DNA from: a virus
Lineage: Duplodnaviria; Heunggongvirae; Uroviricota; Caudoviricetes
IMG/VR virus record: IMGVR_UViG_2737471860_000005
Length of the DNA stretch: 10,662 bases
Reading direction: 5' to 3' (one strand)
Below, one piece after another: positions 1 through 9,650 of the stretch. A program made the position numbers and the translations under genes. The notes under the pieces were generated by a model. It was given only the letters and a program-made list of their open reading frames with translations, was not told the DNA's origin and made no database searches. Positions within the stretch are counted from its first letter, which is position 1, and each line of letters begins with the position of its first letter.

Positions 1-53
1 GGCCATAACAGTATCTACGCAGTACCTGTAATATATTGAATCTGCAGGACTTT

Positions 54-87
54 GTAGGCCAGATAAGGCGTTAATGCCGCATCAGGC
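54..87. repeat. REP (repetitive extragenic palindromic) element in the 3' flank of ybiU
   Basis: GTAGGCCAGATAAGGCGTTAATGCCGCATCAGGC closely matches the enterobacterial REP consensus as I recall it (GTAGGCCGGATAAGGCGTT..CGCCGCATCCGGC), with imperfect dyad symmetry; it lies in an intergenic position downstream of a gene end. Confidence 0.6.
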
Positions 88-169
88 ATTAAGAAAGCGC
101 ACTTGTCAGCAATCTGAGTAACGTCGAATCGATTTTCTTAATCCCACATCAATTCACTTCCATTAACTC

Positions 170-1435
170 TCAAACATCCATGCCCAACGCTCGCTTACCG
201 TGAATGTTGAGGTCGGCAAGCGTAAAGCGTCCTTCCCAGTTTGTTTCATAGTCCTCGCGCGGGAAGTCGCCCGGCGATGCGCCTTTTTCCAGTGCGGCCT
301 TCACCTTGTGCGCGTAGGCAAGATTTTTCTCGCACATCGGTGCCGCAGGAATGTACATCACGTTGCCCCAGCCCTGTTGATTTTCAACGGGGGCAACGGA
401 ATGGATGACGTCGCAGTGCCACCAGACGGAGTCTCCGGCTTCGAGTTTTGGAATGCTGGTTAACGCCTCAATCAACAGTGGATGCCATTGCTCTGATACC
501 GGCAATACTCTTCCGGGCGCTACGCCGCACAGTTCATCCTCCGGCACATCATCAAGCAGCGGACGTAACAGTACGTACGCCATGGCTTCAGGAATGGGCA
601 CGACGTGCAGCAGCCCCTGACCAGGCAGCATATCAGAGAGCGCTGTCCAGCCCTGGAATGTCCGAAACACGGAACATTTGGTGGTGTTGTCCACCGTGTA
701 CTCTTCAACTTCCGTACGATGTGCCGCATGCCAGGGATCATATTGCGCCAGATTGCCATTAAAGACGTTGGCGAAAACGCGCTGATACGCTGGAAGCAGC
801 CAGCGTTCCAGCGCCCCGGAGTCGGTATGCGCTCCAAGACCTTTGGAGGTCGTTCCGGGCGGACGGCGGCGGATACGGTCAGGGTAGATGACGCTCACAT
901 CCGGGTTAAACCATTGCTTTCCATCACTTTCAAATGTCCACAGACGATTGAGAAACGACTGCGCATTCGCCATTTCTTCACTCTGGCGGGCCTGCATTTG
1001 CGCCTGCGACCAGTAGATGGGGTAAATCTCGGGACGTGAAGCGCTGAGCGTCCCGAAGAAATTATCGCCGGGGCCTTTGTAGACCTCGTCAAAGCGGTTG
1101 CGGTCCAGATAGTCCAGCATCGACTGATCCCAGCCTAGCGCTTGTTCGCGGGGGAAATGGCCTTTTATCACCGCACAACCGCGACGTTTAATCTGTTCGC
1201 GCTGATCTGCAGTAACATGACCTGCTTTGATATCGGCATAAGACAGCACCGGCCAGACGGCATCGCCCTGTGCTTTGAGTGCGTTGATTTCAGCCACTCG
1301 CGTGGCAATGTCATCGCTTAGCTGATTAAAGATCTGCTGGACGTCGCCAAGCTGCGCCCGCAGCGCGTGCTTCATCTGACGGATAGCTGCTTTGTGATCG
1401 GCAGGCAATGTGTCGCTGGTAAAAGTAGAAGCCAT
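170..1435 (-). CDS. ybiU: YbiU, DUF1479-family protein of unknown function
   Basis: Long uninterrupted minus-strand ORF; the translation (MASTFTSDTLPADHKAAIRQ...) is recognised as E. coli YbiU. The ORF track starts at GTG 1439-1441, but ATG at 1433-1435 preceded by GAGGTGG is the more likely start, so I give 1435. Confidence 0.88.
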   Translation of the reverse strand: MASTFTSDTLPADHKAAIRQMKHALRAQLGDVQQIFNQLSDDIATRVAEINALKAQGDAVWPVLSYADIKAGHVTADQREQIKRRGCAVIKGHFPREQALGWDQSMLDYLDRNRFDEVYKGPGDNFFGTLSASRPEIYPIYWSQAQMQARQSEEMANAQSFLNRLWTFESDGKQWFNPDVSVIYPDRIRRRPPGTTSKGLGAHTDSGALERWLLPAYQRVFANVFNGNLAQYDPWHAAHRTEVEEYTVDNTTKCSVFRTFQGWTALSDMLPGQGLLHVVPIPEAMAYVLLRPLLDDVPEDELCGVAPGRVLPVSEQWHPLLIEALTSIPKLEAGDSVWWHCDVIHSVAPVENQQGWGNVMYIPAAPMCEKNLAYAHKVKAALEKGASPGDFPREDYETNWEGRFTLADLNIHGKRALGMDV

Positions 1436-1485
1436 AACCACCTCTCATTAACTTTCATTCGAAACCATTCTGATTTGCATGTGAC

Positions 1486-1514
1486 AATATAAGTTATAAA
1501 TAAGTTAATGCAAG
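1486..1514 (-). promoter_or_regulatory. Candidate sigma70 promoter for ybiU
   Basis: On the minus strand: TTGCAT (1514-1509), 17-bp spacer, TATATT (1491-1486), about 45 nt upstream of the ybiU ATG. Hexamer match only, no other support. Confidence 0.25.
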
Positions 1515-1542
1515 TTTAATGATTTGATGTGATGTACAGGAT

Positions 1543-1578
1543 GTAAAAAGAAGGGAAAACCGGAGCGCACGGCTCCGG
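1543..1578 (-). terminator. Rho-independent terminator downstream of ybiV
   Basis: Perfect 7-bp inverted repeat CCGGAGC/GCTCCGG (1560-1566 and 1572-1578) with a 5-nt loop; on the minus strand it is followed directly by a U-rich run (UUUUCCCUUCUUUUU, 1559-1543), 9 nt after the ybiV stop codon. Confidence 0.6.
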
Positions 1579-1586
1579 TAGAGAGG

Positions 1587-2402
1587 TCAGCTGTTAAAAG
1601 GGGATGTGTTATCCAGCACCGCCTGAATCACATTCAGCGCGCCTTCATGATTATTATCATCGGTAGCGTAACGGGCGATTTGTTTAATGTTTTCCGCAGC
1701 ATTGCCCATCGCAAAGGAATAACGCGCCATTTTCAGCATCTCCGCATCGTTACCGCTGTCGCCAATCGCTACCACATTTTGCGGTGACAGATCCCAGCGT
1801 TTCAGTAACCGCGAAATACCGTTTGCTTTATGTAGACCGGGAATAATCAGGTCGATAAAGCCAAAACCACTGGTGACGGGTTTCATAATGCCATCGAGCG
1901 CTATGTGCAGTTTGTCGATCACTAACGGGATTTGTTCATCTGGCAGGTTGAGCGAAAACTTGAACAGTACGTCGTCAATCTCCTGATAATCTTTTACAGC
2001 TTTCAGGCGATGGTAGTGTTTTGCCATCAGTGCGACAAATGCTTCGGGGGCATTTTCGCTGACATATGCACTTTGCAGACCGCAGGCGACAAAATTGAGT
2101 TGCTTATCTTTTAGCAACTCGCCAATAACAATCCGCGATTCATGTCGGGTCAGTTCGCCGTGGAACAGTTGCTTGCCATGTTCGTAAACCAGTGCGCCGT
2201 TTTCCGCGACAAAAGAGATCTCATCCTTTAGCTCAGGAAAGAACGAAATAAGCTGGTAATACTGATTACCGCTGGCGACAACGAACTCAATGCCGCGCTT
2301 TTTCAGTTCCTGATATTGCGCCATAAAACGTGGTTGGTTGTACGTTTTGGCGTCGTTAAGAAAAGTACCGTCCATGTCTGTGACGATAACTTTTACGCTC
2401 AT
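1587..2402 (-). CDS. ybiV: HAD-superfamily (Cof-type) sugar phosphatase YbiV
   Basis: 271-aa ORF with the N-terminal HAD motif DMDGT ([11 protein letters not shown]) and a C-terminal GDSGND motif; recognised as E. coli YbiV. AGGAG lies 7 nt upstream of the ATG. Confidence 0.88.
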
Positions 2403-2516
2403 AGGTGTGCTCCTGGCTCGAAAATGAAACCGTAACAGTGTAATAACAATGTGACGCAGAGCACAAATTATATTTCGAATGAAAGTAAGGATGAAATTGA
2501 TGATGTGAATGATTTA

Positions 2517-2539
2517 GCCCGGCGACGCCGCAGCCGGGC
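2517..2539 (-). terminator. Hairpin downstream of ybiW, possible weak terminator
   Basis: 7-bp inverted repeat GCCCGGC/GCCGGGC with a 9-nt loop, 9 nt after the ybiW stop. The following minus-strand sequence is only modestly U-rich, so terminator function is uncertain. Confidence 0.3.
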
Positions 2540-2547
2540 CGAAGAGA

Positions 2548-4980
2548 TTACAGCATATGTTCAGTACGAGCGATGATATCGTCCTGAGCGTCTGGAGAGA
2601 GCGCGGTGAAGAAGGCGGAATAACCCGCGACACGCACTACCAGATCGCGGTACTGATCCGGATGTTTTTTCGCCTCCAGCAGCGTTTCGCGGGAAACGAT
2701 GTTGTACTGAATATGCCAGCCTTTATGCACCTCGAAGAAGGTGCGCAGCAGGATCATCAGCTTCTGCTTGTCAGATTCGTTCTCCAGCGTTGCCGGATTC
2801 AGTTTCTGGTTGAGCAACACGCCGCCGAGAATCGCTGCCGTAGGCAGTTTACCCACCGAGCCAATGACCGCAGTAGGGCCGAGATGGTCAGTACCAGAGG
2901 CCGGACTAGCGCCTTCTGCCAGCGGGGTGTGGGCTTTACGCCCGTCCGGCGTTGCCATAGTTTGCGCGCCAAACGGTACGTTAGCGGAGATAGATGACGT
3001 ACCCGCGTAATAGTTGCCGCCAACCGGACCACGACCGTAGCGCGGATTATGGTACTGTTTCAGTTCGTCGATATAGGTCTGATAAGCGCGAGCCAGCAGC
3101 GTATCGACAGTATCATCGTCGTTGCCGTACTTCGGCGCACCGTTAATCAGCCGCTGACGCAGTTGCTCATGAGTCAGGCCATCGAAGTCATCCGCCAGTG
3201 CGGCAGCCAGCTGTTGCTGACCAATCGCGCCCTGTTCAAATACCAGTTTCTTCACTGCCGCCAGGCTGTTGCCGAGGTTGGCAATGCCAACCTGCAGGCC
3301 AGAAACCCAGTCATATTTCGCGCCGCCTTGCTTGATACTTTTCGCTCGCTCAATACAGTCATCCACCAGCGCCGAGCAGAGAATATCGTGCACGTTCTCT
3401 TCCAGCATGGTGTCGACGACATATTCGATTTCGATTGATTTACGCGTGTAATAACGGATTTGCGTATCCCACGCGTCCATTACTTCATCGAAATTGTTAA
3501 AGTTGCCTGCCGACAACGCTTTTTCTTGTGGCAGGAACACTTTGCCGCTGGTGGCATCACGCCCGCCTTCCAGCGCCGCCAGCATCACGCGGGCGAAGTT
3601 GATAAAGCTCATGCCGGTACAGCGATAGCCCCATTTGCCACCGACGGCGGTTTCGATACAACCAATCGCTGCGTAGTCGTAAGCGTCCTGCGGTTCAATA
3701 CCGAGTTTAATAAATTCCGGGATCACGATTTCGTCGTTGTTGAACGCCGGCATCCCGAAGCCGCAACGGATCACCTGTACGCAGGCGTCGAGGAAATCAT
3801 TACTCATTCCTGCATGGTAACGCACGCTGAGGTTAGGCTGAGTGGAACGCAGGCGACCGCAGGATTCGAGGATCGCGTAAGAGAGGGGATTCACTGCATC
3901 CATTGGTTGACCATCAACCAGATTTTGTCCGCCAATGGTAACGTTCTGATACAGCGGACTTCCCGCAGAGGCTTTTGAGTGTGAGCCGGAGCGGATCTTG
4001 TTCACTTCCAGCAGTTTCAGCCAGCAGCTATGTAGCATCTCGATGGCGTGTTCGCGATCCAGCGTCTGGTTGAGTTCAACGTCGCGGCGATAGTACGGGT
4101 AGAGATACTGGTCCATACGACCAAACGATACCGAGTGACCGTTAGATTCGATCTGCAAAATCAATTGGATGAAGTAACACAGTTGCAGCGCCTGCCAGAA
4201 AGTCTGCGGCGGCTGGTGGGCGATAAGATCGCAGTTTTCTGCCATCGTCAGCAGTTCATCGCGACGGCTTTCGCGAGTTTCGGTAGCAGCCATTTCACGC
4301 GCCAGGGCAGCGAAACGTTCAATGTGTTCACTGACTGCCACCAGCACGATATCAATCGCTTTCAGGAATTGTTCGCCATGTAAATCTTCCAGCACCGTCA
4401 GATTGATGCGCGAGCGACGTTCCGCTACTTTCTCACGCAGACCATCAAGACCTTTTTCCAGCAGCAGCGGGAAATTCACCGCCAGGTGCGCATCGCCGGA
4501 GGTCATATTGCCTTCCGCTTTAATGATTCCGGTCGCCAGCAGACCTTTTTGCTCATCGGTAAACATGCCGTAGCAGCGATCCTGTACGGTCTGACCGCGC
4601 CACCACGGGCACACTTCATGCAGAACGCGTTTGTTCTCTTCGCTCACCGCAAAGCCAGCACCGGGACGATCTGCCAGATCATCAATCTCTTTTTCGATCC
4701 ACGAGACAGTATATTCCGGGAAGATCGGCGCGGCGCGAACTTCGCTTGCCTGGTTGCCAATGATCAACTCATCGTGTTTGATCCAGATGGTGCGATTCGC
4801 CAGGTGATGCGCCAGTGCCAGCGCGCGACGTACCGGGATCGGCTTATCGAGATGTTGTTGATACATCTCGGTATAGTGCTGCGCGCGCTCGGTACAGACT
4901 GGCGGTTTCACAATATGCACCAGCGCATTTTTGTGCGCTTTAATGCGGTCGCTGAGCGTGTCCAGTTTCAGTGTGGTCAT
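2548..4980 (-). CDS. ybiW: Glycyl-radical enzyme of the pyruvate formate-lyase family (YbiW/PflF)
   Basis: 810-aa ORF with a C-terminal glycyl-radical signature (VVRVAGYSAFF) about 30 residues from the end; the size and motif fit PFL-family glycyl-radical enzymes. Its ATG (4978-4980) sits 6 nt after the ybiY stop with GAGGA inside the end of ybiY, suggesting translational coupling. Confidence 0.88.
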   Translation of the reverse strand: MTTLKLDTLSDRIKAHKNALVHIVKPPVCTERAQHYTEMYQQHLDKPIPVRRALALAHHLANRTIWIKHDELIIGNQASEVRAAPIFPEYTVSWIEKEIDDLADRPGAGFAVSEENKRVLHEVCPWWRGQTVQDRCYGMFTDEQKGLLATGIIKAEGNMTSGDAHLAVNFPLLLEKGLDGLREKVAERRSRINLTVLEDLHGEQFLKAIDIVLVAVSEHIERFAALAREMAATETRESRRDELLTMAENCDLIAHQPPQTFWQALQLCYFIQLILQIESNGHSVSFGRMDQYLYPYYRRDVELNQTLDREHAIEMLHSCWLKLLEVNKIRSGSHSKASAGSPLYQNVTIGGQNLVDGQPMDAVNPLSYAILESCGRLRSTQPNLSVRYHAGMSNDFLDACVQVIRCGFGMPAFNNDEIVIPEFIKLGIEPQDAYDYAAIGCIETAVGGKWGYRCTGMSFINFARVMLAALEGGRDATSGKVFLPQEKALSAGNFNNFDEVMDAWDTQIRYYTRKSIEIEYVVDTMLEENVHDILCSALVDDCIERAKSIKQGGAKYDWVSGLQVGIANLGNSLAAVKKLVFEQGAIGQQQLAAALADDFDGLTHEQLRQRLINGAPKYGNDDDTVDTLLARAYQTYIDELKQYHNPRYGRGPVGGNYYAGTSSISANVPFGAQTMATPDGRKAHTPLAEGASPASGTDHLGPTAVIGSVGKLPTAAILGGVLLNQKLNPATLENESDKQKLMILLRTFFEVHKGWHIQYNIVSRETLLEAKKHPDQYRDLVVRVAGYSAFFTALSPDAQDDIIARTEHML

Positions 4981-4985
4981 GGTTG

Positions 4986-5340
4986 TTATCCTCGTAAGGT
5001 CGCGGTTAACCCTTTCTGGCAGGCATACTGCTGGGCAAAGTCGAGCAGTTCTGGCGCATCAAGCGGTTTTTCCGGGGCGTCATAGGGCAGATTAAGTAAG
5101 TGATATTTGTTGATGCCCAGCGTGTGGTAGGGCAGAAAATGAATTTCGCCAACGTGCAGCTCGTCGGCGGCAAAATCGGTAATGGCTTTTACAGAGGTTT
5201 CGTCGGCATTAAAGCCCTGAATCAGCGGCACGCGGATAATGATTTTTTTGCCCGCTGCGGCGAGTTTTTTCAGGTTATCCAGCACCCTGGCGGCGTTACC
5301 GTCGGTCCACTGTTTAAACGGCGCGTCGGCAACGTGTTTT
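4986..5340 (-). pseudogene. ybiY: 3' fragment of the glycyl-radical-enzyme activating enzyme gene ybiY (pflE), truncated by prophage insertion
   Basis: The reading frame ending at stop 4986-4988 (...[28 protein letters not shown]...) runs upstream without an ATG to about 5340, where composition switches abruptly to AT-rich phage-end sequence and a stop appears at 5349-5351. The N-terminal part, which should carry the radical-SAM CxxxCxxC motif, is absent from this window. The activase identity rests on gene order next to ybiW and on memory. Confidence 0.75.
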
Positions 5341-5359
5341 AAATATGACTAGGTAATTT

Positions 5360-5491
5360 ATTCAAGATAACCGGGAAAAGATTAAAAAAGACGGGATTTG
5401 ATGGGATTCAATAAGTTAGGTACTGAACGCATTCAAGATAAAACGTACCGAAAACGCTCAACGCCTCGGGAACGATAAAACATTCAAGATA
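5360..5491 (+). repeat. attL transposase-binding-site repeats (L1-L3-like)
   Basis: Three direct copies of the 10-bp core ATTCAAGATA at 5360-5369, 5431-5440 and 5482-5491. The middle copy continues AAAACGTACCGAAAAC, resembling the MuA end-binding consensus that ends in CGAAAA. Confidence 0.6.
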
Positions 5492-5542
5492 GGCGCGCCG
5501 TGTATTTTAAGCCTTTTAAGACATTTCAAAAACATCAGTATG

Positions 5543-5610
5543 GCCTTTAAAAAAGAATTTTAAAGGCACCATGAAGGCAGGTCAATGAAGTTAACCTGCC
5601 TTCGTTTTTA
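5543..5610. terminator. Tandem hairpins at the 3' end of the repressor gene; intrinsic-terminator-like on the plus strand
   Basis: Hairpin A: 10-bp inverted repeat GCCTTTAAAA/TTTTAAAGGC (5543-5552 and 5558-5567), 5-nt loop. Hairpin B: 9-bp stem GAAGGCAGG/CCTGCCTTC (5573-5581 and 5595-5603), 13-nt loop that contains the c stop codon, followed on the plus strand by GTTTTTA (5604-5610). Confidence 0.4.
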
Positions 5611-6106
5611 CACTCTCTGAGAGAATACTAGCTTCAATCTCCGCCAAAATCTCTCTGACTTGCTCGTCGGGCATATCGACCAGCATCAACGCAGCTAGGC
5701 GTTTACGGCCCTCCAGTTGCAGCAATTCTTGATTTTCCTTATCTAACAAGCGTAGCACGGTCTCAACACCTTTCCTTGCGAGCATGTTGGTTAGGGCCTC
5801 TCGTTCCTCATTGGTAAGAAACGAGAGCATTTCAATTAGCTGATCGCCTTGGCTTAAATTACTTTGTAATTCTTGTGTTTTTGGTGAATTTCCGTTACCT
5901 GTTTTTAACCATTCAAGACTAACGCCTTCACTTTCTGCAATGCGTACCAATATGCTTTCACGAGGCTCTGGTGTGTTTCCCTTTTTAAAATAGCTTTGTA
6001 ACGTGTTGATATTTATTCCCCAAGCTCTGGCGGCAGCACTTCTTGATGGATATCGCCTAATAAGATAGGCCATGCGCTCTACGATAGGTTCTTTTGCCTG
6101 CTCCAT
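5591..6106 (-). CDS. c: Prophage repressor (Mu c-like C-terminal region, HTH N-terminal domain)
   Basis: 171-aa ORF transcribed divergently from ner, with GGAGG 7 nt upstream of the ATG. The N-terminal region looks like a helix-turn-helix (SRSAAARAWGININTLQSY). The C-terminal segment LAALMLVDMPDEQVREILAEIE resembles the Mu repressor C-terminal region as I recall it. Position and orientation match Mu c. Confidence 0.7.
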   Translation of the reverse strand: MEQAKEPIVERMAYLIRRYPSRSAAARAWGININTLQSYFKKGNTPEPRESILVRIAESEGVSLEWLKTGNGNSPKTQELQSNLSQGDQLIEMLSFLTNEEREALTNMLARKGVETVLRLLDKENQELLQLEGRKRLAALMLVDMPDEQVREILAEIEASILSESVKTKAG

Positions 6107-6297
6107 AAAAGTACCTCCAGGTATTTTTCTGCTTAAAGGTTCTTTTCTATCTATCTAATTGAATAGAAATGAAATCTTAAAAAACCAATAAAAATACAAA
6201 AAATACCTTGAATAGGTACTTTTTGTGATCTACGATTTTATTCACTCGGATATCCGCGCGAATATCCGAGCGGGTAATTTTGTAGGGTAAAGGAAAG
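6107..6297. promoter_or_regulatory. Divergent early control region (Pc/Pe promoters and operators; possible enhancer)
   Basis: 191-bp AT-rich intergenic region between divergent c and ner. It contains two copies of TTGAATAG (6159-6166 and 6208-6215), the partial palindrome AAAATACC-N7-GGTACTTTT (6200-6224), A-tracts, and a possible rightward promoter TTGAAT (6208-6213), 17-bp spacer, TACGAT (6231-6236). It lies about 770-960 bp from the left end, comparable to the Mu operator/enhancer position. Confidence 0.5.
6245..6270. promoter_or_regulatory. Palindromic operator-like site upstream of ner
   Basis: CTCGGATAT-CCGCGCGA-ATATCCGAG: 9-bp perfect inverted arms. The left arm contains the self-complementary 10-mer CGGATATCCG (6247-6256), and the half-site ATATCCG recurs 12 bp later (6262-6268). 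It sits 28-52 bp upstream of the ner ATG, just downstream of the putative early promoter -10. Confidence 0.45.
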
Positions 6298-6549
6298 ATG
6301 AGACAAAGAGAAGATAGTGGCCGCGATTGGCCTTCGCTGATGATTCAGCAGGCACTCAAAGATAATGGGTGGTCTTCCTTTCGGGAGCTTTCACTCCATG
6401 CAGGTTATGCTCAGGATTCACTGAAAGCGGTAGTTCGTACACCAAACAAAAAATACGAACGCGTTATTTCTGACGCTATAGGTGTCCCGCCAGAAGTCAT
6501 CTGGCCCAGCCGATACCGTAATGATGGAATAATCAGGAAGGCGTCGTGA
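6298..6549 (+). CDS. ner: Ner-like DNA-binding early regulator
   Basis: 83-aa ORF with AAGGAAAG upstream. It contains RDW near the N-terminus and PEVIWPSRY near the C-terminus, both matching phage Mu Ner and the Ner/Nlp family as I recall them. It is the first gene of the rightward early operon. Confidence 0.8.
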   Translation: MRQREDSGRDWPSLMIQQALKDNGWSSFRELSLHAGYAQDSLKAVVRTPNKKYERVISDAIGVPPEVIWPSRYRNDGIIRKAS

Positions 6550-6550
6550 T

Positions 6551-8647
6551 ATGCAGTCGTACGTTACCGTAAATGACCTGCTCGGTGTTCCTGGAATGCC
6601 AGCCACAGCAAAAGGCATCCGACAGGCGTTACAGCGTTTTTCTCGTGGTCTTGGTGACATGAGCCGCCGTAGGGAAGGCTCAAAAGCCATTGAGTACCAC
6701 ATTGATTGCCTACCGGAAATAACACAAAAGGCACTACGTGAACGTTATGTGGAACAACTAGTAGCTACGGAGAACAACGTTTCTGAAGTAAAAGCTGTTA
6801 CTAGGAAGACACGTAATCCCGATGCTGTTCAGGCGATCGAAGCATATCGCGGTTCTCCGCAACTGATGGAAGAACGCCTGAATGCACTTACCGAAAACCA
6901 GCGTCGGGTATCTGAAGCAAGGGCAGCGCTGGTGGTGGAAGTGCTGAAGCTGGAAAGCGCCGGTAACATCGGGCGACTGAAAGCCATTAACTTTCTTGTT
7001 GAAAAGGCTCGTAAAGACGAGCTGCCAGAGCGACTGCAACAGGCCGCGATTAACGCCAATGCAAAACGTGGCGCTAATCGCACTATCAGCCGTGATCCGC
7101 TTTACCAGTGGGTACTGAAATACAACCAGTCGCGGAATGCCGCAGAACGACTGCTGTTACTGGCACCAGGTAAACGTGACGAAATAAAACCGGAAGAAAT
7201 TAGCTGGCTACCTGAATTTCTGGCGCAGTATCGCCAGGTGAACGGCAGACCTATGTCTGAAGCCTACGAGGATTTTGTCGCGGAATGGCAGCGTCGCCAT
7301 GCAGACGAACCGTACATGCTGGAGGTGATGCCCTCTTACGATGTGGTTCGTTATGCCATGAAGAAATTGCCGGAAGTGGTGAAACAAAAAGGACGCGTTA
7401 CCGGCAGTGAATACCGTCAGCTTGAAGGATTCACCCGTCGCAACTGGACCGCTATGCCGGTGAATTATGTCTGGATTGGTGACGGTCACGGTATGAAGCT
7501 GAAATGTGCGCATCCGATCCACGGGCGTCCATTCTCACCAGAAGTCACGTTTGTGATCGATGGTGGAACACGGTTTGTTGTTGGCTGGAGTCTTGACCTT
7601 GCCGAGAACGTGTTCGCCGTTGCCGGTGCAATACAGCACGGCATTCGTAACCACGGAAAACCGTTCCTGTATTACTCGGATAACGGTTCCGGTGAAACGG
7701 CAGATATGCTGGATAAAGAGATTGTCGGGATTCTGCCCCGTCTGGGCATTAACCACCCCACCGGTATTGCGGGAAATCCACAGGGACGCGGCATTATTGA
7801 ACGCCTGAACCGGACGCTGCCGATGCGTATAGCCAGGAAGTATCGCACCTATTTTGGCAAGGGTGCTGACCGGGAATCATTGCGTGTGCTCAATCGCGAT
7901 CTGCGTTCAGCATTTAATGCCCTGCAACAGGACAAACCGCTGAATGCTCGCCAGAAATCTGCAATGCGTGAGCTGCCATCATGGACAGAACTTATCGAGG
8001 CTATTCGTGAAGGTGTGGAATGGTACAACAACCGCCCACATTCTGAGCTGCCGATGAAACCTGACGGACGGCATTACAGCCCGGCAGAATTCAGAAAAAA
8101 ACGCCTGGCAGAAGAAGACACCGAAATTGAGTGGCTGAGTGATCTTGAGCTGCGCGACATGTTCCGCCCGATGGTGGAACGGCCTGTAAGACGGTGCGAA
8201 ATTCAGTGGCTGAACAATATTTACTACGCGCCGGAATTGCGTGACGAACACGGCCGCAAAGTTCTTATCAGTTATGACATTCATGACGCAGAGCGAATTA
8301 CGGTACGCCGTAAAGACGGCAGCTTTATTTGTGAGGCGATATGGAACGGCAATAAACGCGCAGCCTTTCCTGTCACGGCTGAATATCACAAACAACAGCA
8401 GCGTATTAAAGGAATGCGCAAACGTGCTGAGGAAAAAATTCGTGATGCTGAAGATGAAGGTATCCAGATTCTGGAACACAAACAGTCTGAACCATGTCTG
8501 GATAATGTTTATCGCCCGGTTGGTAATACGGTAACCGTCCAGCAACAGGATTATGAAGAGGATTACGACGAAGATTATAAACGCGATTTCTGGCTGGGTT
8601 TGCAGAAACTTGCAGCCATACAGGAACAGGATGATCCGCTGGCCTGA
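6551..8647 (+). CDS. A: Mu A-like DDE transposase
   Basis: 698-aa ORF starting 1 nt after the ner stop (TGAtATG). The N-terminal motif GSKAIEYHIDCLP resembles the MuA/Mu-repressor winged-helix motif (GVKGGKAIEY). Candidate catalytic residues are D311 (WIGDGH), D377 (YYSDNGS) and E417 (IIERLNRTL), followed by WYNNRPHSEL, typical of a retroviral-integrase-type core. Confidence 0.88.
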   Translation: MQSYVTVNDLLGVPGMPATAKGIRQALQRFSRGLGDMSRRREGSKAIEYHIDCLPEITQKALRERYVEQLVATENNVSEVKAVTRKTRNPDAVQAIEAYRGSPQLMEERLNALTENQRRVSEARAALVVEVLKLESAGNIGRLKAINFLVEKARKDELPERLQQAAINANAKRGANRTISRDPLYQWVLKYNQSRNAAERLLLLAPGKRDEIKPEEISWLPEFLAQYRQVNGRPMSEAYEDFVAEWQRRHADEPYMLEVMPSYDVVRYAMKKLPEVVKQKGRVTGSEYRQLEGFTRRNWTAMPVNYVWIGDGHGMKLKCAHPIHGRPFSPEVTFVIDGGTRFVVGWSLDLAENVFAVAGAIQHGIRNHGKPFLYYSDNGSGETADMLDKEIVGILPRLGINHPTGIAGNPQGRGIIERLNRTLPMRIARKYRTYFGKGADRESLRVLNRDLRSAFNALQQDKPLNARQKSAMRELPSWTELIEAIREGVEWYNNRPHSELPMKPDGRHYSPAEFRKKRLAEEDTEIEWLSDLELRDMFRPMVERPVRRCEIQWLNNIYYAPELRDEHGRKVLISYDIHDAERITVRRKDGSFICEAIWNGNKRAAFPVTAEYHKQQQRIKGMRKRAEEKIRDAEDEGIQILEHKQSEPCLDNVYRPVGNTVTVQQQDYEEDYDEDYKRDFWLGLQKLAAIQEQDDPLA

Positions 8648-8720: not shown

Positions 8721-9650
8721 ATGACCGATATTAATGATGTTTTCAATACGATTAGCTCACTGATTACTGACAGCGTAAAAACTCAGAGCGTTATTGCTAA
8801 AGAGGCAGGCGTGTCAGAGGCCACACTCTCGGAACTCCGCAAAGGTCGTTACAAAGGCGATACCGAAGGGATGCATGACAAATTACTGATGTGGTATCAG
8901 GCCTGGCAGAAAAGCCAGGAATTACCAGGCGCACCGCAACTTGTGGAAACACAAACCCTGCGTGATTTGCGTGAACTGTTCCAGACGGTGCGTGTTATGG
9001 GGTGTATCAGCGTTCTGGTTGGTGTGCCGGGGGTAGGAAAAACCGTTGCAGCCCGTGAATACAGTAATCGGGTATCTAATACCTGGATGGTGACCCTTTC
9101 CCCTGCACACTCAACGGTGACTGAATGTCTGCTGGAACTGGCAGACGCGCTGGGAATTGATAATCCGCAAAGGAATAAAGGTGCACTGACCCGTGCCATT
9201 CGCAAAAAACTGAATGGTACACGCGGTCTGGTTATTGTGGATGAAGCTGACCACCTGAGCATTGACGGGCTGGAACAATTACGTGCCATTCAGGATGCCA
9301 CCGGAGTCGGGATGGTATTGATTGGTAACCCCAGCCAGTTAGCCAAAGCCACACATCGGGGAACGGATGACCTTGCACGTTTGTTCAGTCGTTTCGCCAT
9401 GACAAAGCAACTACGTAAAGCCAAAAAGGCTGACGTGGTGGCAATTGCAAAAGCCTGGGGCATTGAGGGCGAAGATGAATTATCACTCATGCAGAGTATC
9501 GCGGAAAAACCAGGTGCATTACGTGTATTAACTCATACGTTGAATCAGGCGTGGCTGGCAGCCAGCGGGAAAGGCGTTCCTCTGTCCAAAGACTACATTA
9601 AAGCGGCTTTTAAAGAGGTTTACAGCAACCCGAAATTACTGAACTGGTAA
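8721..9650 (+). CDS. B: Mu B-like AAA+ ATPase (target DNA activator)
   Basis: 309-aa ORF with Walker A GVPGVGKT (residues 101-108) and Walker B LVIVDEAD (about 170-177), plus an N-terminal HTH-like segment (SVIAKEAGVSEATLSELRKG). It lies immediately downstream of the transposase, as in Mu. Confidence 0.85.
   Translation: MTDINDVFNTISSLITDSVKTQSVIAKEAGVSEATLSELRKGRYKGDTEGMHDKLLMWYQAWQKSQELPGAPQLVETQTLRDLRELFQTVRVMGCISVLVGVPGVGKTVAAREYSNRVSNTWMVTLSPAHSTVTECLLELADALGIDNPQRNKGALTRAIRKKLNGTRGLVIVDEADHLSIDGLEQLRAIQDATGVGMVLIGNPSQLAKATHRGTDDLARLFSRFAMTKQLRKAKKADVVAIAKAWGIEGEDELSLMQSIAEKPGALRVLTHTLNQAWLAASGKGVPLSKDYIKAAFKEVYSNPKLLNW

Follow-up and report, generated by a model that had tools for sequence, protein, structure and literature searches.

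The spacer between the divergent c and ner genes of the prophage analysed here, that is the whole intergenic stretch of 191 bp at positions 6107-6297, probably constitutes a Mu-type early control region in which repressor operators, a likely IHF site, the early promoter Pe and a dyad acting as the Ner operator are combined, as judged from the arrangement and conservation of its motifs. The repeats found in this spacer are most likely ordinary parts of the phage lysis/lysogeny switch of an E. coli Mu-like prophage. The motifs listed in an earlier note on this DNA were all confirmed at the positions given there, but they do not form one system of repeats, and comparison with some 50 distinct relatives divides them among repressor sites, Pe, an IHF-like site and a palindrome upstream of ner.

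The window, i.e. the complete stretch of 10,662 nucleotides under analysis, consists of E. coli chromosome at positions 1-5330 (ybiU, ybiV, ybiW and ybiY, with 100% identity to many genomes), and the left end of a Mu-like prophage lies near 5343 (TATGAC...), so that the insertion lies at ybiY or within the 5' portion of this gene. When 5,426 complete E. coli genomes were searched for the c-ner region at >88% identity, it was found in none. The prophage genes follow the order of Mu, with end repeats of the ATTCAAGATAA type (three copies), c, ner, A and B, the divergent c and ner genes being followed by those for transposase A and ATPase B (open reading frames with matches to PF13693, PF09299/PF02316 and PF09077). 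The c repressor gene (5591-6106, minus strand, 171 aa; listed as an ORF and matched to phrog_3037, transcriptional repressor, E = 2e-53) encodes an HTH of the XRE/CI type with the recognition helix WGININTLQSY, as indicated by a weak PF07022 match and by alignment with relatives. The ner gene (6298-6549, plus strand, 83 aa) is the first of the early operon and encodes a Ner-family HTH protein (PF13693, E = 5e-14; phrog_769), which matches the Mu Ner structure 1NEQ at E = 5e-7 and was matched by sequence to 1NEQ/1NER (Mu Ner) and 7F9H (EnrR). Transposase A (6551-8647) and B (8721-9650) were assigned from the ORF list with domain and phrog matches. The ner stop codon ends at 6549 and the A start codon lies at 6551, and this gap of 1 nt suggests that the two genes may be translationally coupled.

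The three ATTCAAGATAA repeats, located at 5360-5492 and presumed to be MuA end-binding sites, are common to the loci L004 and L005, while they are missing in Sp18-type elements despite the related c-ner regions of the latter (L004, L005, L006 and L007 were compared); the end/transposase module and the immunity module therefore differ in history. At the 3' end of c there are two near-perfect hairpins (5543-5567 and 5573-5603), the second followed by GTTTTT on the plus strand, which may insulate the prophage from host read-through and which were not called by a simple terminator scan; a promoter-like TTGACC-17-TAAAAT on the minus strand, from 5585 to 5557, also lies near this end. At the opposite end of the gene, the c N-terminus is approximately 11-30 residues longer in relatives than in the window, and since window positions 6137-6150 (AGGTTCTTTTCTAT) align with the start region of these longer genes (..GTTCTTTTCTCAT), the window c seems to have lost an ancestral start and to begin now at 6106.

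DNA and protein searches yielded approximately 160 loci. Some 50 of these are distinct enterobacterial Mu-like prophages and phages that have in common with the window both the c family (WG-ININ-TL-xx-Y helix) and the Ner subfamily (AGY-x-x-DSLK). The closest relative, L004, is an element at 88% identity; in L005, L010, L011 and L090, which come from E. coli and Shigella, the same ner is combined with a different c, and the named relatives are Sakai prophage Sp18 (L006), Yersinia phage Tongde (L002) and Pseudomonas phage VW-6B (L003). One layout upstream of ner recurs in all of these approximately 50 relatives, namely an inverted half-site pair around a -35-like hexamer, a 17-bp spacer and a -10-like hexamer, followed by TTTATCC, GATAAC-N6-GTTATC-N6-GRTAAC, TTTTTAGGATAG and the ner ATG. 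Among other Ner lineages, inverted repeats upstream of ner are enriched, 26% reaching p <= 0.05. A distant Ner subfamily (helix G-L-K-P-DTLKNAL; L049, L052, L058, L060, L067 and L082) carries 12-bp direct repeats CCATGGGGTTAAC/CCATGGGGTAA in place of the GATAAC dyad upstream of ner, and the c genes paired with it have the helix LSYSTLNNY and go with a GATCTCAAAAGAGATC palindrome.

The palindrome upstream of ner is most likely a Ner operator and not a repressor site, the sequence evidence pointing towards Ner because the element is unlike the repressor half-sites and is the same in relatives with a different c helix and different operators. The element CTCGGATAT-N8-ATATCCGAG, which the earlier note had placed at 6245-6270, was found there in a stronger form than had been described, as a core of 26 bp in which two abutting arms of 13 nt (CTCGGATATCCGC|GCGAATATCCGAG) are complementary at 12 of 13 positions. 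The third ATATCCG was likewise confirmed at 6262 on the plus strand, in addition to the copies at 6247 (minus) and 6250 (plus). A palindrome of such strength is the single one in the 10.6-kb window, with 0.01 expected per dinucleotide shuffle. It forms the core of an extended dyad of 44 bp (6236-6279), the proposed Ner operator, which is centred between 6257 and 6258 and contains four hexamers spaced 12 bp apart: TTTATT (6237-6242, weak), GATATC (6249-6254), AATATC (6261-6266) and GGTAAT (6273-6278). Secondary symmetry axes at a distance of 6 bp arise because GATATC is itself self-complementary.

Conservation of the motifs in related prophages, which the earlier note had suggested as a check, was found for the centre of this dyad among 32 gap-free distinct relatives, where 74.7% of the cells of the 21-pair dyad are paired as compared to 23-45% in slid registers. 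In the same 32 relatives, changes on both sides of the dyad occupy 28 cells as opposed to 14.1 +/- 4.2 in shuffles (0/500). The arms change together from GATAAC/GTTATC to GATATC/GATATC in the window and Sp18 clades, and from CC/GG to AC/GT in L035 and L037. The palindrome is thus conserved and dyad-symmetric, of the kind that small HTH proteins would be expected to bind, as had been proposed, and Ner may occupy it either with one monomer per hexamer or with two per GATATC as in EnrR. Several pairs of relatives combine the same Ner and the same site with a different c and different operators (the window versus L005 and L090; L106 versus L112 and L107; L002 versus L104); since each site physically adjoins its gene, however, module swaps would keep site and gene together even if the two were functionally unlinked, and linkage to ner therefore confounds this argument for a Ner site.

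The palindrome also predicts a strong RNA hairpin, and there is a small chance that the dyad acts as RNA, forming a hairpin at the 5' end of the leftward c leader or of the rightward early transcript, where it would affect stability or attenuation with or without a protein on the DNA. Folding of the minus-strand RNA of 6200-6277 gave -27.5 kcal/mol (z = -6.2), the palindrome forming a hairpin of 13 bp, and of 37 relatives 28 have a hairpin that is more stable in minus than in plus RNA. Sites 2 and 3 of the dyad together with TTTTT look like a short terminator in many relatives, and the changes on both arms would fit RNA pairing too. Such a hairpin is nevertheless predicted by any DNA palindrome, while the sequence of the hexamers themselves (GATAWC) is conserved beyond mere pairing and the presence of four phased hexamers suits protein binding. 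Mismatches of the wobble type point to the plus strand for the outer arms but to the minus strand for the core, so that neither strand is preferred consistently, and the plus-strand fold is unremarkable (z = -1.0). Furthermore, an Rfam search gave no match at E <= 1 and a terminator scan of the window called none, the palindrome included.

The half-site AGGTWYTTTT occurs in six exact copies, all of which lie inside 6086-6223, and GGTAYTTTT occurs four times in the intergenic region, where 0.2 are expected in the whole window; these counts are above those of all 200 shuffles. An O1-like inverted pair (AAAAGTACCT-CC-AGGTATTTTT, 6107-6128) lies directly beside the c start codon and spans the Shine-Dalgarno sequence of this gene; it is also present in L004 and, in diverged form, in Sp18. 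An O2-like inverted pair (AAAAATACCT-TGAAT-AGGTACTTTT, 6199-6223) flanks the -35 hexamer of Pe. The partial palindrome AAAATACC-N7-GGTACTTTT, for which the earlier note had offered no interpretation, was recovered within it at 6200-6223 and, from its sequence and position, would be the best candidate for a repressor operator over the Pe -35. Two further plus-strand copies of the half-site, both AGGTTCTTTT, lie within the first c codons at 6086-6095, where the sequence also encodes the conserved K-E-P, and at 6137-6146, where it corresponds to the start region and N-terminal 'KEP' codons that relatives have in their longer c genes; as they coincide with present or ancestral K-E-P codons, these two copies are not independent evidence of operators.

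Since the sequence of the arms tracks the recognition helix of c across relatives, the AGGTWYTTTT half-sites are probably operators of the c repressor. The helices NTLNSY and QSY go with GGTAYTTTT, NTLQNY with GTTCTTTT, NTLKNY with GGTGTTTTT or GGTTCTTTT, INEGTLKNY with GGAATCTTT and LSFSTLNNY with GATCCACAT, and a Mantel test of c helix against operator arms gave r = 0.43 (0/2000 permutations). The similarity of the Ner HTH is also correlated with the operator arms (r = 0.45, Mantel) as well as with the Ner site, so that the Mantel test discriminates from the c side alone.

In Mu a third operator, O3, overlaps Pc in roughly the region that corresponds to the palindrome, and the element might accordingly be regarded as an O3-like site through which c autoregulates its own promoter, without any Ner site being present. 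The sequence GGTAATTTT (6273-6281), one position off GGTAYTTTT, lends this some colour, yet the proposal appears improbable: the GATAWC hexamers are unrelated in sequence to AGGTWYTTTT, the block is unchanged across relatives that differ in c helix and operator half-sites, and the correlation between c helix and Ner-proximal sequence is r = 0.09 (Mantel, not significant). GRTAACTTTTT is moreover conserved in all c types and is therefore not specific to one repressor type, for which reason GGTAATTTT, that is site 3 with its T-run, was rejected as a repressor half-site. Unlike in Mu, no O3-like repressor site is evident in the window. Where the earlier note had named 'Ner or the repressor' as the binding protein, the position shared with the Mu and D108 operators favours Ner, while the low correlation with the c helix argues against the repressor, and the palindrome is regarded in what follows as the putative Ner operator.

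The two copies of TTGAATAG reported earlier were found, at 6159 and 6208 and thus 49 bp apart, but they do not form a repeat element. A repeated 8-mer of some kind occurs in 55% of dinucleotide shuffles of the 191-bp spacer, and L004 retains the first copy only, such that this duplication is at chance level. That all of the motifs are functionless chance products of an AT-rich spacer is a reading to which this duplication lends support, but which is highly improbable and is refuted for the palindrome and the half-sites, considering the rarity of such a palindrome in shuffles, half-site counts that exceed every shuffle, and a position and dyad conserved across relatives from several enterobacterial genera; it stands for the TTGAATAG repeat only.

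One of these copies holds the -35 of Pe and the other lies at the IHF-like position. The Pe -35 hexamer, TTGAAT, maps to 6208-6213 on the plus strand and is therefore contained in the second TTGAATAG; a 17-bp spacer separates it from the -10 hexamer TACGAT (6231-6236, plus strand), and the predicted start lies near 6243-6244. In a weight-matrix scan of 52 relatives, the best plus-strand sigma-70 score fell at this aligned position in 42. The -35 reads TTGATT, TTTACA or TTGACA in relatives, its TT being invariant, as is the A at hexamer position 2 of the -10. Pe matches the sigma-70 consensus at just 8 of 12 positions, and a simple promoter scan of the spacer was blank for this reason.

The first TTGAATAG (6159-6166) shares 6 of its 8 bases with an IHF-like core (ATTCAATTAGATA, 6152-6164, minus strand), which has two mismatches to the consensus WATCAANNNNTTR. 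At this position 60% of 55 relatives are within one mismatch of the consensus, as compared to 12.5% in shuffles, and L005 and L120 match it perfectly, which suggests that 6152-6164 is probably a degenerate IHF site between two operator clusters. The likeness of ATTCAA, the reverse complement of TTGAAT, to the attL repeats had been mentioned as possibly coincidental, and coincidence it is, because L005 has the same attL repeats but carries TTTACA at the -35 and TATCAA in the IHF-like site; a link between the two was accordingly rejected. The A-tracts upstream of Pe (6179-6204, plus strand), in which bending had been suspected, do show an AA periodicity of approximately 10 bp, the support for which is modest (p ~0.02), and part of this stretch overlaps a weak half-site (6190-6197) and the left O2 half-site.

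For the leftward promoter Pc, two weak candidate -10 hexamers may be proposed on the minus strand immediately to the right of the dyad, CAAAAT (6282 to 6277) and TACCCT (6289 to 6284). In the weight-matrix scan minus-strand matches recur at these two positions in 12 and 21 relatives, respectively, with scores of 4.9-7.6 bits for the candidates, which share their relative position with the second promoter feature annotated in Mu, at 1063-1101. By this analogy Pe and Pc are probably convergent, with the site lying between them. The core of the palindrome extends from about +2 of Pe to 28 bp before the ner ATG at 6298, and the site misses the -35 and most of the -10 of Pe, the weak outermost hexamer alone reaching the last base of the -10. 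If Pc is real, the palindrome would lie between the starts of Pe and Pc, and Ner bound there would interfere with the two promoters. The earlier proposal that Ner would block both divergent promoters agrees with the placement known from Mu and D108, while its geometry has to be amended, given that the Pe -35 is left uncovered and the promoters are probably convergent.

Based on these assignments, the switch may be envisaged as follows. In the lysogen, repressor on the half-site pair that brackets the Pe -35 would occlude Pe, the other inverted pair adjoining the c start; between them, the degenerate IHF site would be followed by phased A-tracts up to the O2-like operator, as in Mu. Once Pe (TTGAAT-17-TACGAT) fires, Ner would be made and would bind the 44-bp dyad from approximately +2 of Pe onward, thereby throttling Pe in an autoregulatory manner and blocking the leftward repressor promoter, which would probably start at the right edge of the site.

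This analysis provides a concrete operator map for a widespread, uncharacterised enterobacterial lineage of Mu-like prophages, to which Sp18 of E. coli O157:H7 Sakai belongs. It comprises the Ner box, a 44-bp dyad in which GATAWC hexamers recur every 12 bp, and several types of repressor half-site that track the c helix; the latter predict immunity groups from sequence, and the map could guide the induction or engineering of such prophages. The understanding of how a Mu-type switch works is unchanged by it.

Concerning known systems, Mu has the same gene order as the window prophage, and its T-run repressor half-sites bracket the Pe -35 likewise (AAAAGC...TTTACA...GCTTTT). Mu carries a perfect IHF consensus, TATCAACGCGTTA, at 946-958 between its operator clusters, whereas the core at the equivalent place in the window is degenerate. 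Just after Pe, Mu has CTAAGT-N6-ACTTAG within features annotated in its GenBank record as the Ner-binding region; the hexamer-N6-hexamer geometry is shared while the hexamers differ (CTAAGT in Mu, GATAWC here), and the two Ner proteins are 36% identical. In classical Mu, the operator/enhancer sites are contested between repressor and transposase, which bind them through homologous domains. The window c differs from the type of Mu c and the MuA N-terminus in having an XRE/CI-type DNA-binding domain; it has no PF02316 match, and its N-terminus resembles neither that of Mu c nor that of MuA from the same prophage. In this MuA (6551-6850 region) the Mu-type N-terminal domain is retained, at 30% identity to residues 1-61 of Mu A; the operator/enhancer relationship may therefore differ from that in Mu. 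It is conceivable, albeit doubtful, that the competition between repressor and transposase for a shared operator/enhancer has been uncoupled or rebuilt. In that case the T-run, conserved in every operator half-site, could be the part that MuA reads, or a separate enhancer could exist. Independently of this, the Ner palindrome might also serve the leader RNA of the leftward repressor transcript as a stable 5' hairpin.

The Ner operator of D108 consists of two 11-bp inverted repeats separated by 8 bp, and in the D108 sequence CCGTGAGCTAC-N8-GTAGCTCACGG lies 25 bp upstream of ner, which is the placement of the window palindrome. Read as in the earlier note, the window palindrome has perfectly inverted arms of 9 bp separated by 8 bp, and it is situated 25-30 bp upstream of ner. 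The operator sequences are unrelated, however, the window spacer (CCGCGCGA) being GC-rich and itself symmetric as part of the dyad where that of the D108 type is AT-rich, and the window has two further phased hexamers that flank the core. At the level of sequence, an inverted-repeat site directly downstream of the Pe -10 and within 20-55 bp upstream of ner is found here as in Mu and D108. D108 Ner was reportedly described by Kukolj et al. in 1989 as a monomer that oligomerises on DNA.

EnrR of Edwardsiella piscicida (PDB 7F9H), a crystallised member of the Ner family with the same PF13693 fold as the window Ner, is a monomer in solution, of which two closely packed molecules bind the short continuous palindrome 5'-CTATAG-3'; its strongest ChIP peak lies upstream of its own gene (PMC9023278). 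EnrR has a preference for AT-rich DNA and serves as a global anti-H-NS factor. The window GATATC and the self-complementary CGGATATCCG are palindromes of the same form as the EnrR site. The base-contacting Arg40, Arg47 and Arg55 of EnrR align with Leu33, Asp40 and Thr48 of the window Ner, and the specificity must therefore differ.

A search of the literature found no paper characterising the operators of this Mu-like lineage. The c protein of Sp18 is 71% identical to that of the window and those of phages Tongde and VW-6B are 47-51% identical, while the Ner proteins of Sp18 and related Mu-like prophages and phages are 50-54% identical to the window Ner. The layout in the Sp18 group is that of the window, with a half-site pair round the -35, the GATAWC dyad and GRTAACTTTTTAGG before ner; the window has GATATC in place of GATAAC, and its palindrome, at 12 of 13 positions, is the most perfect of the set, the others attaining 6-11 of 13.
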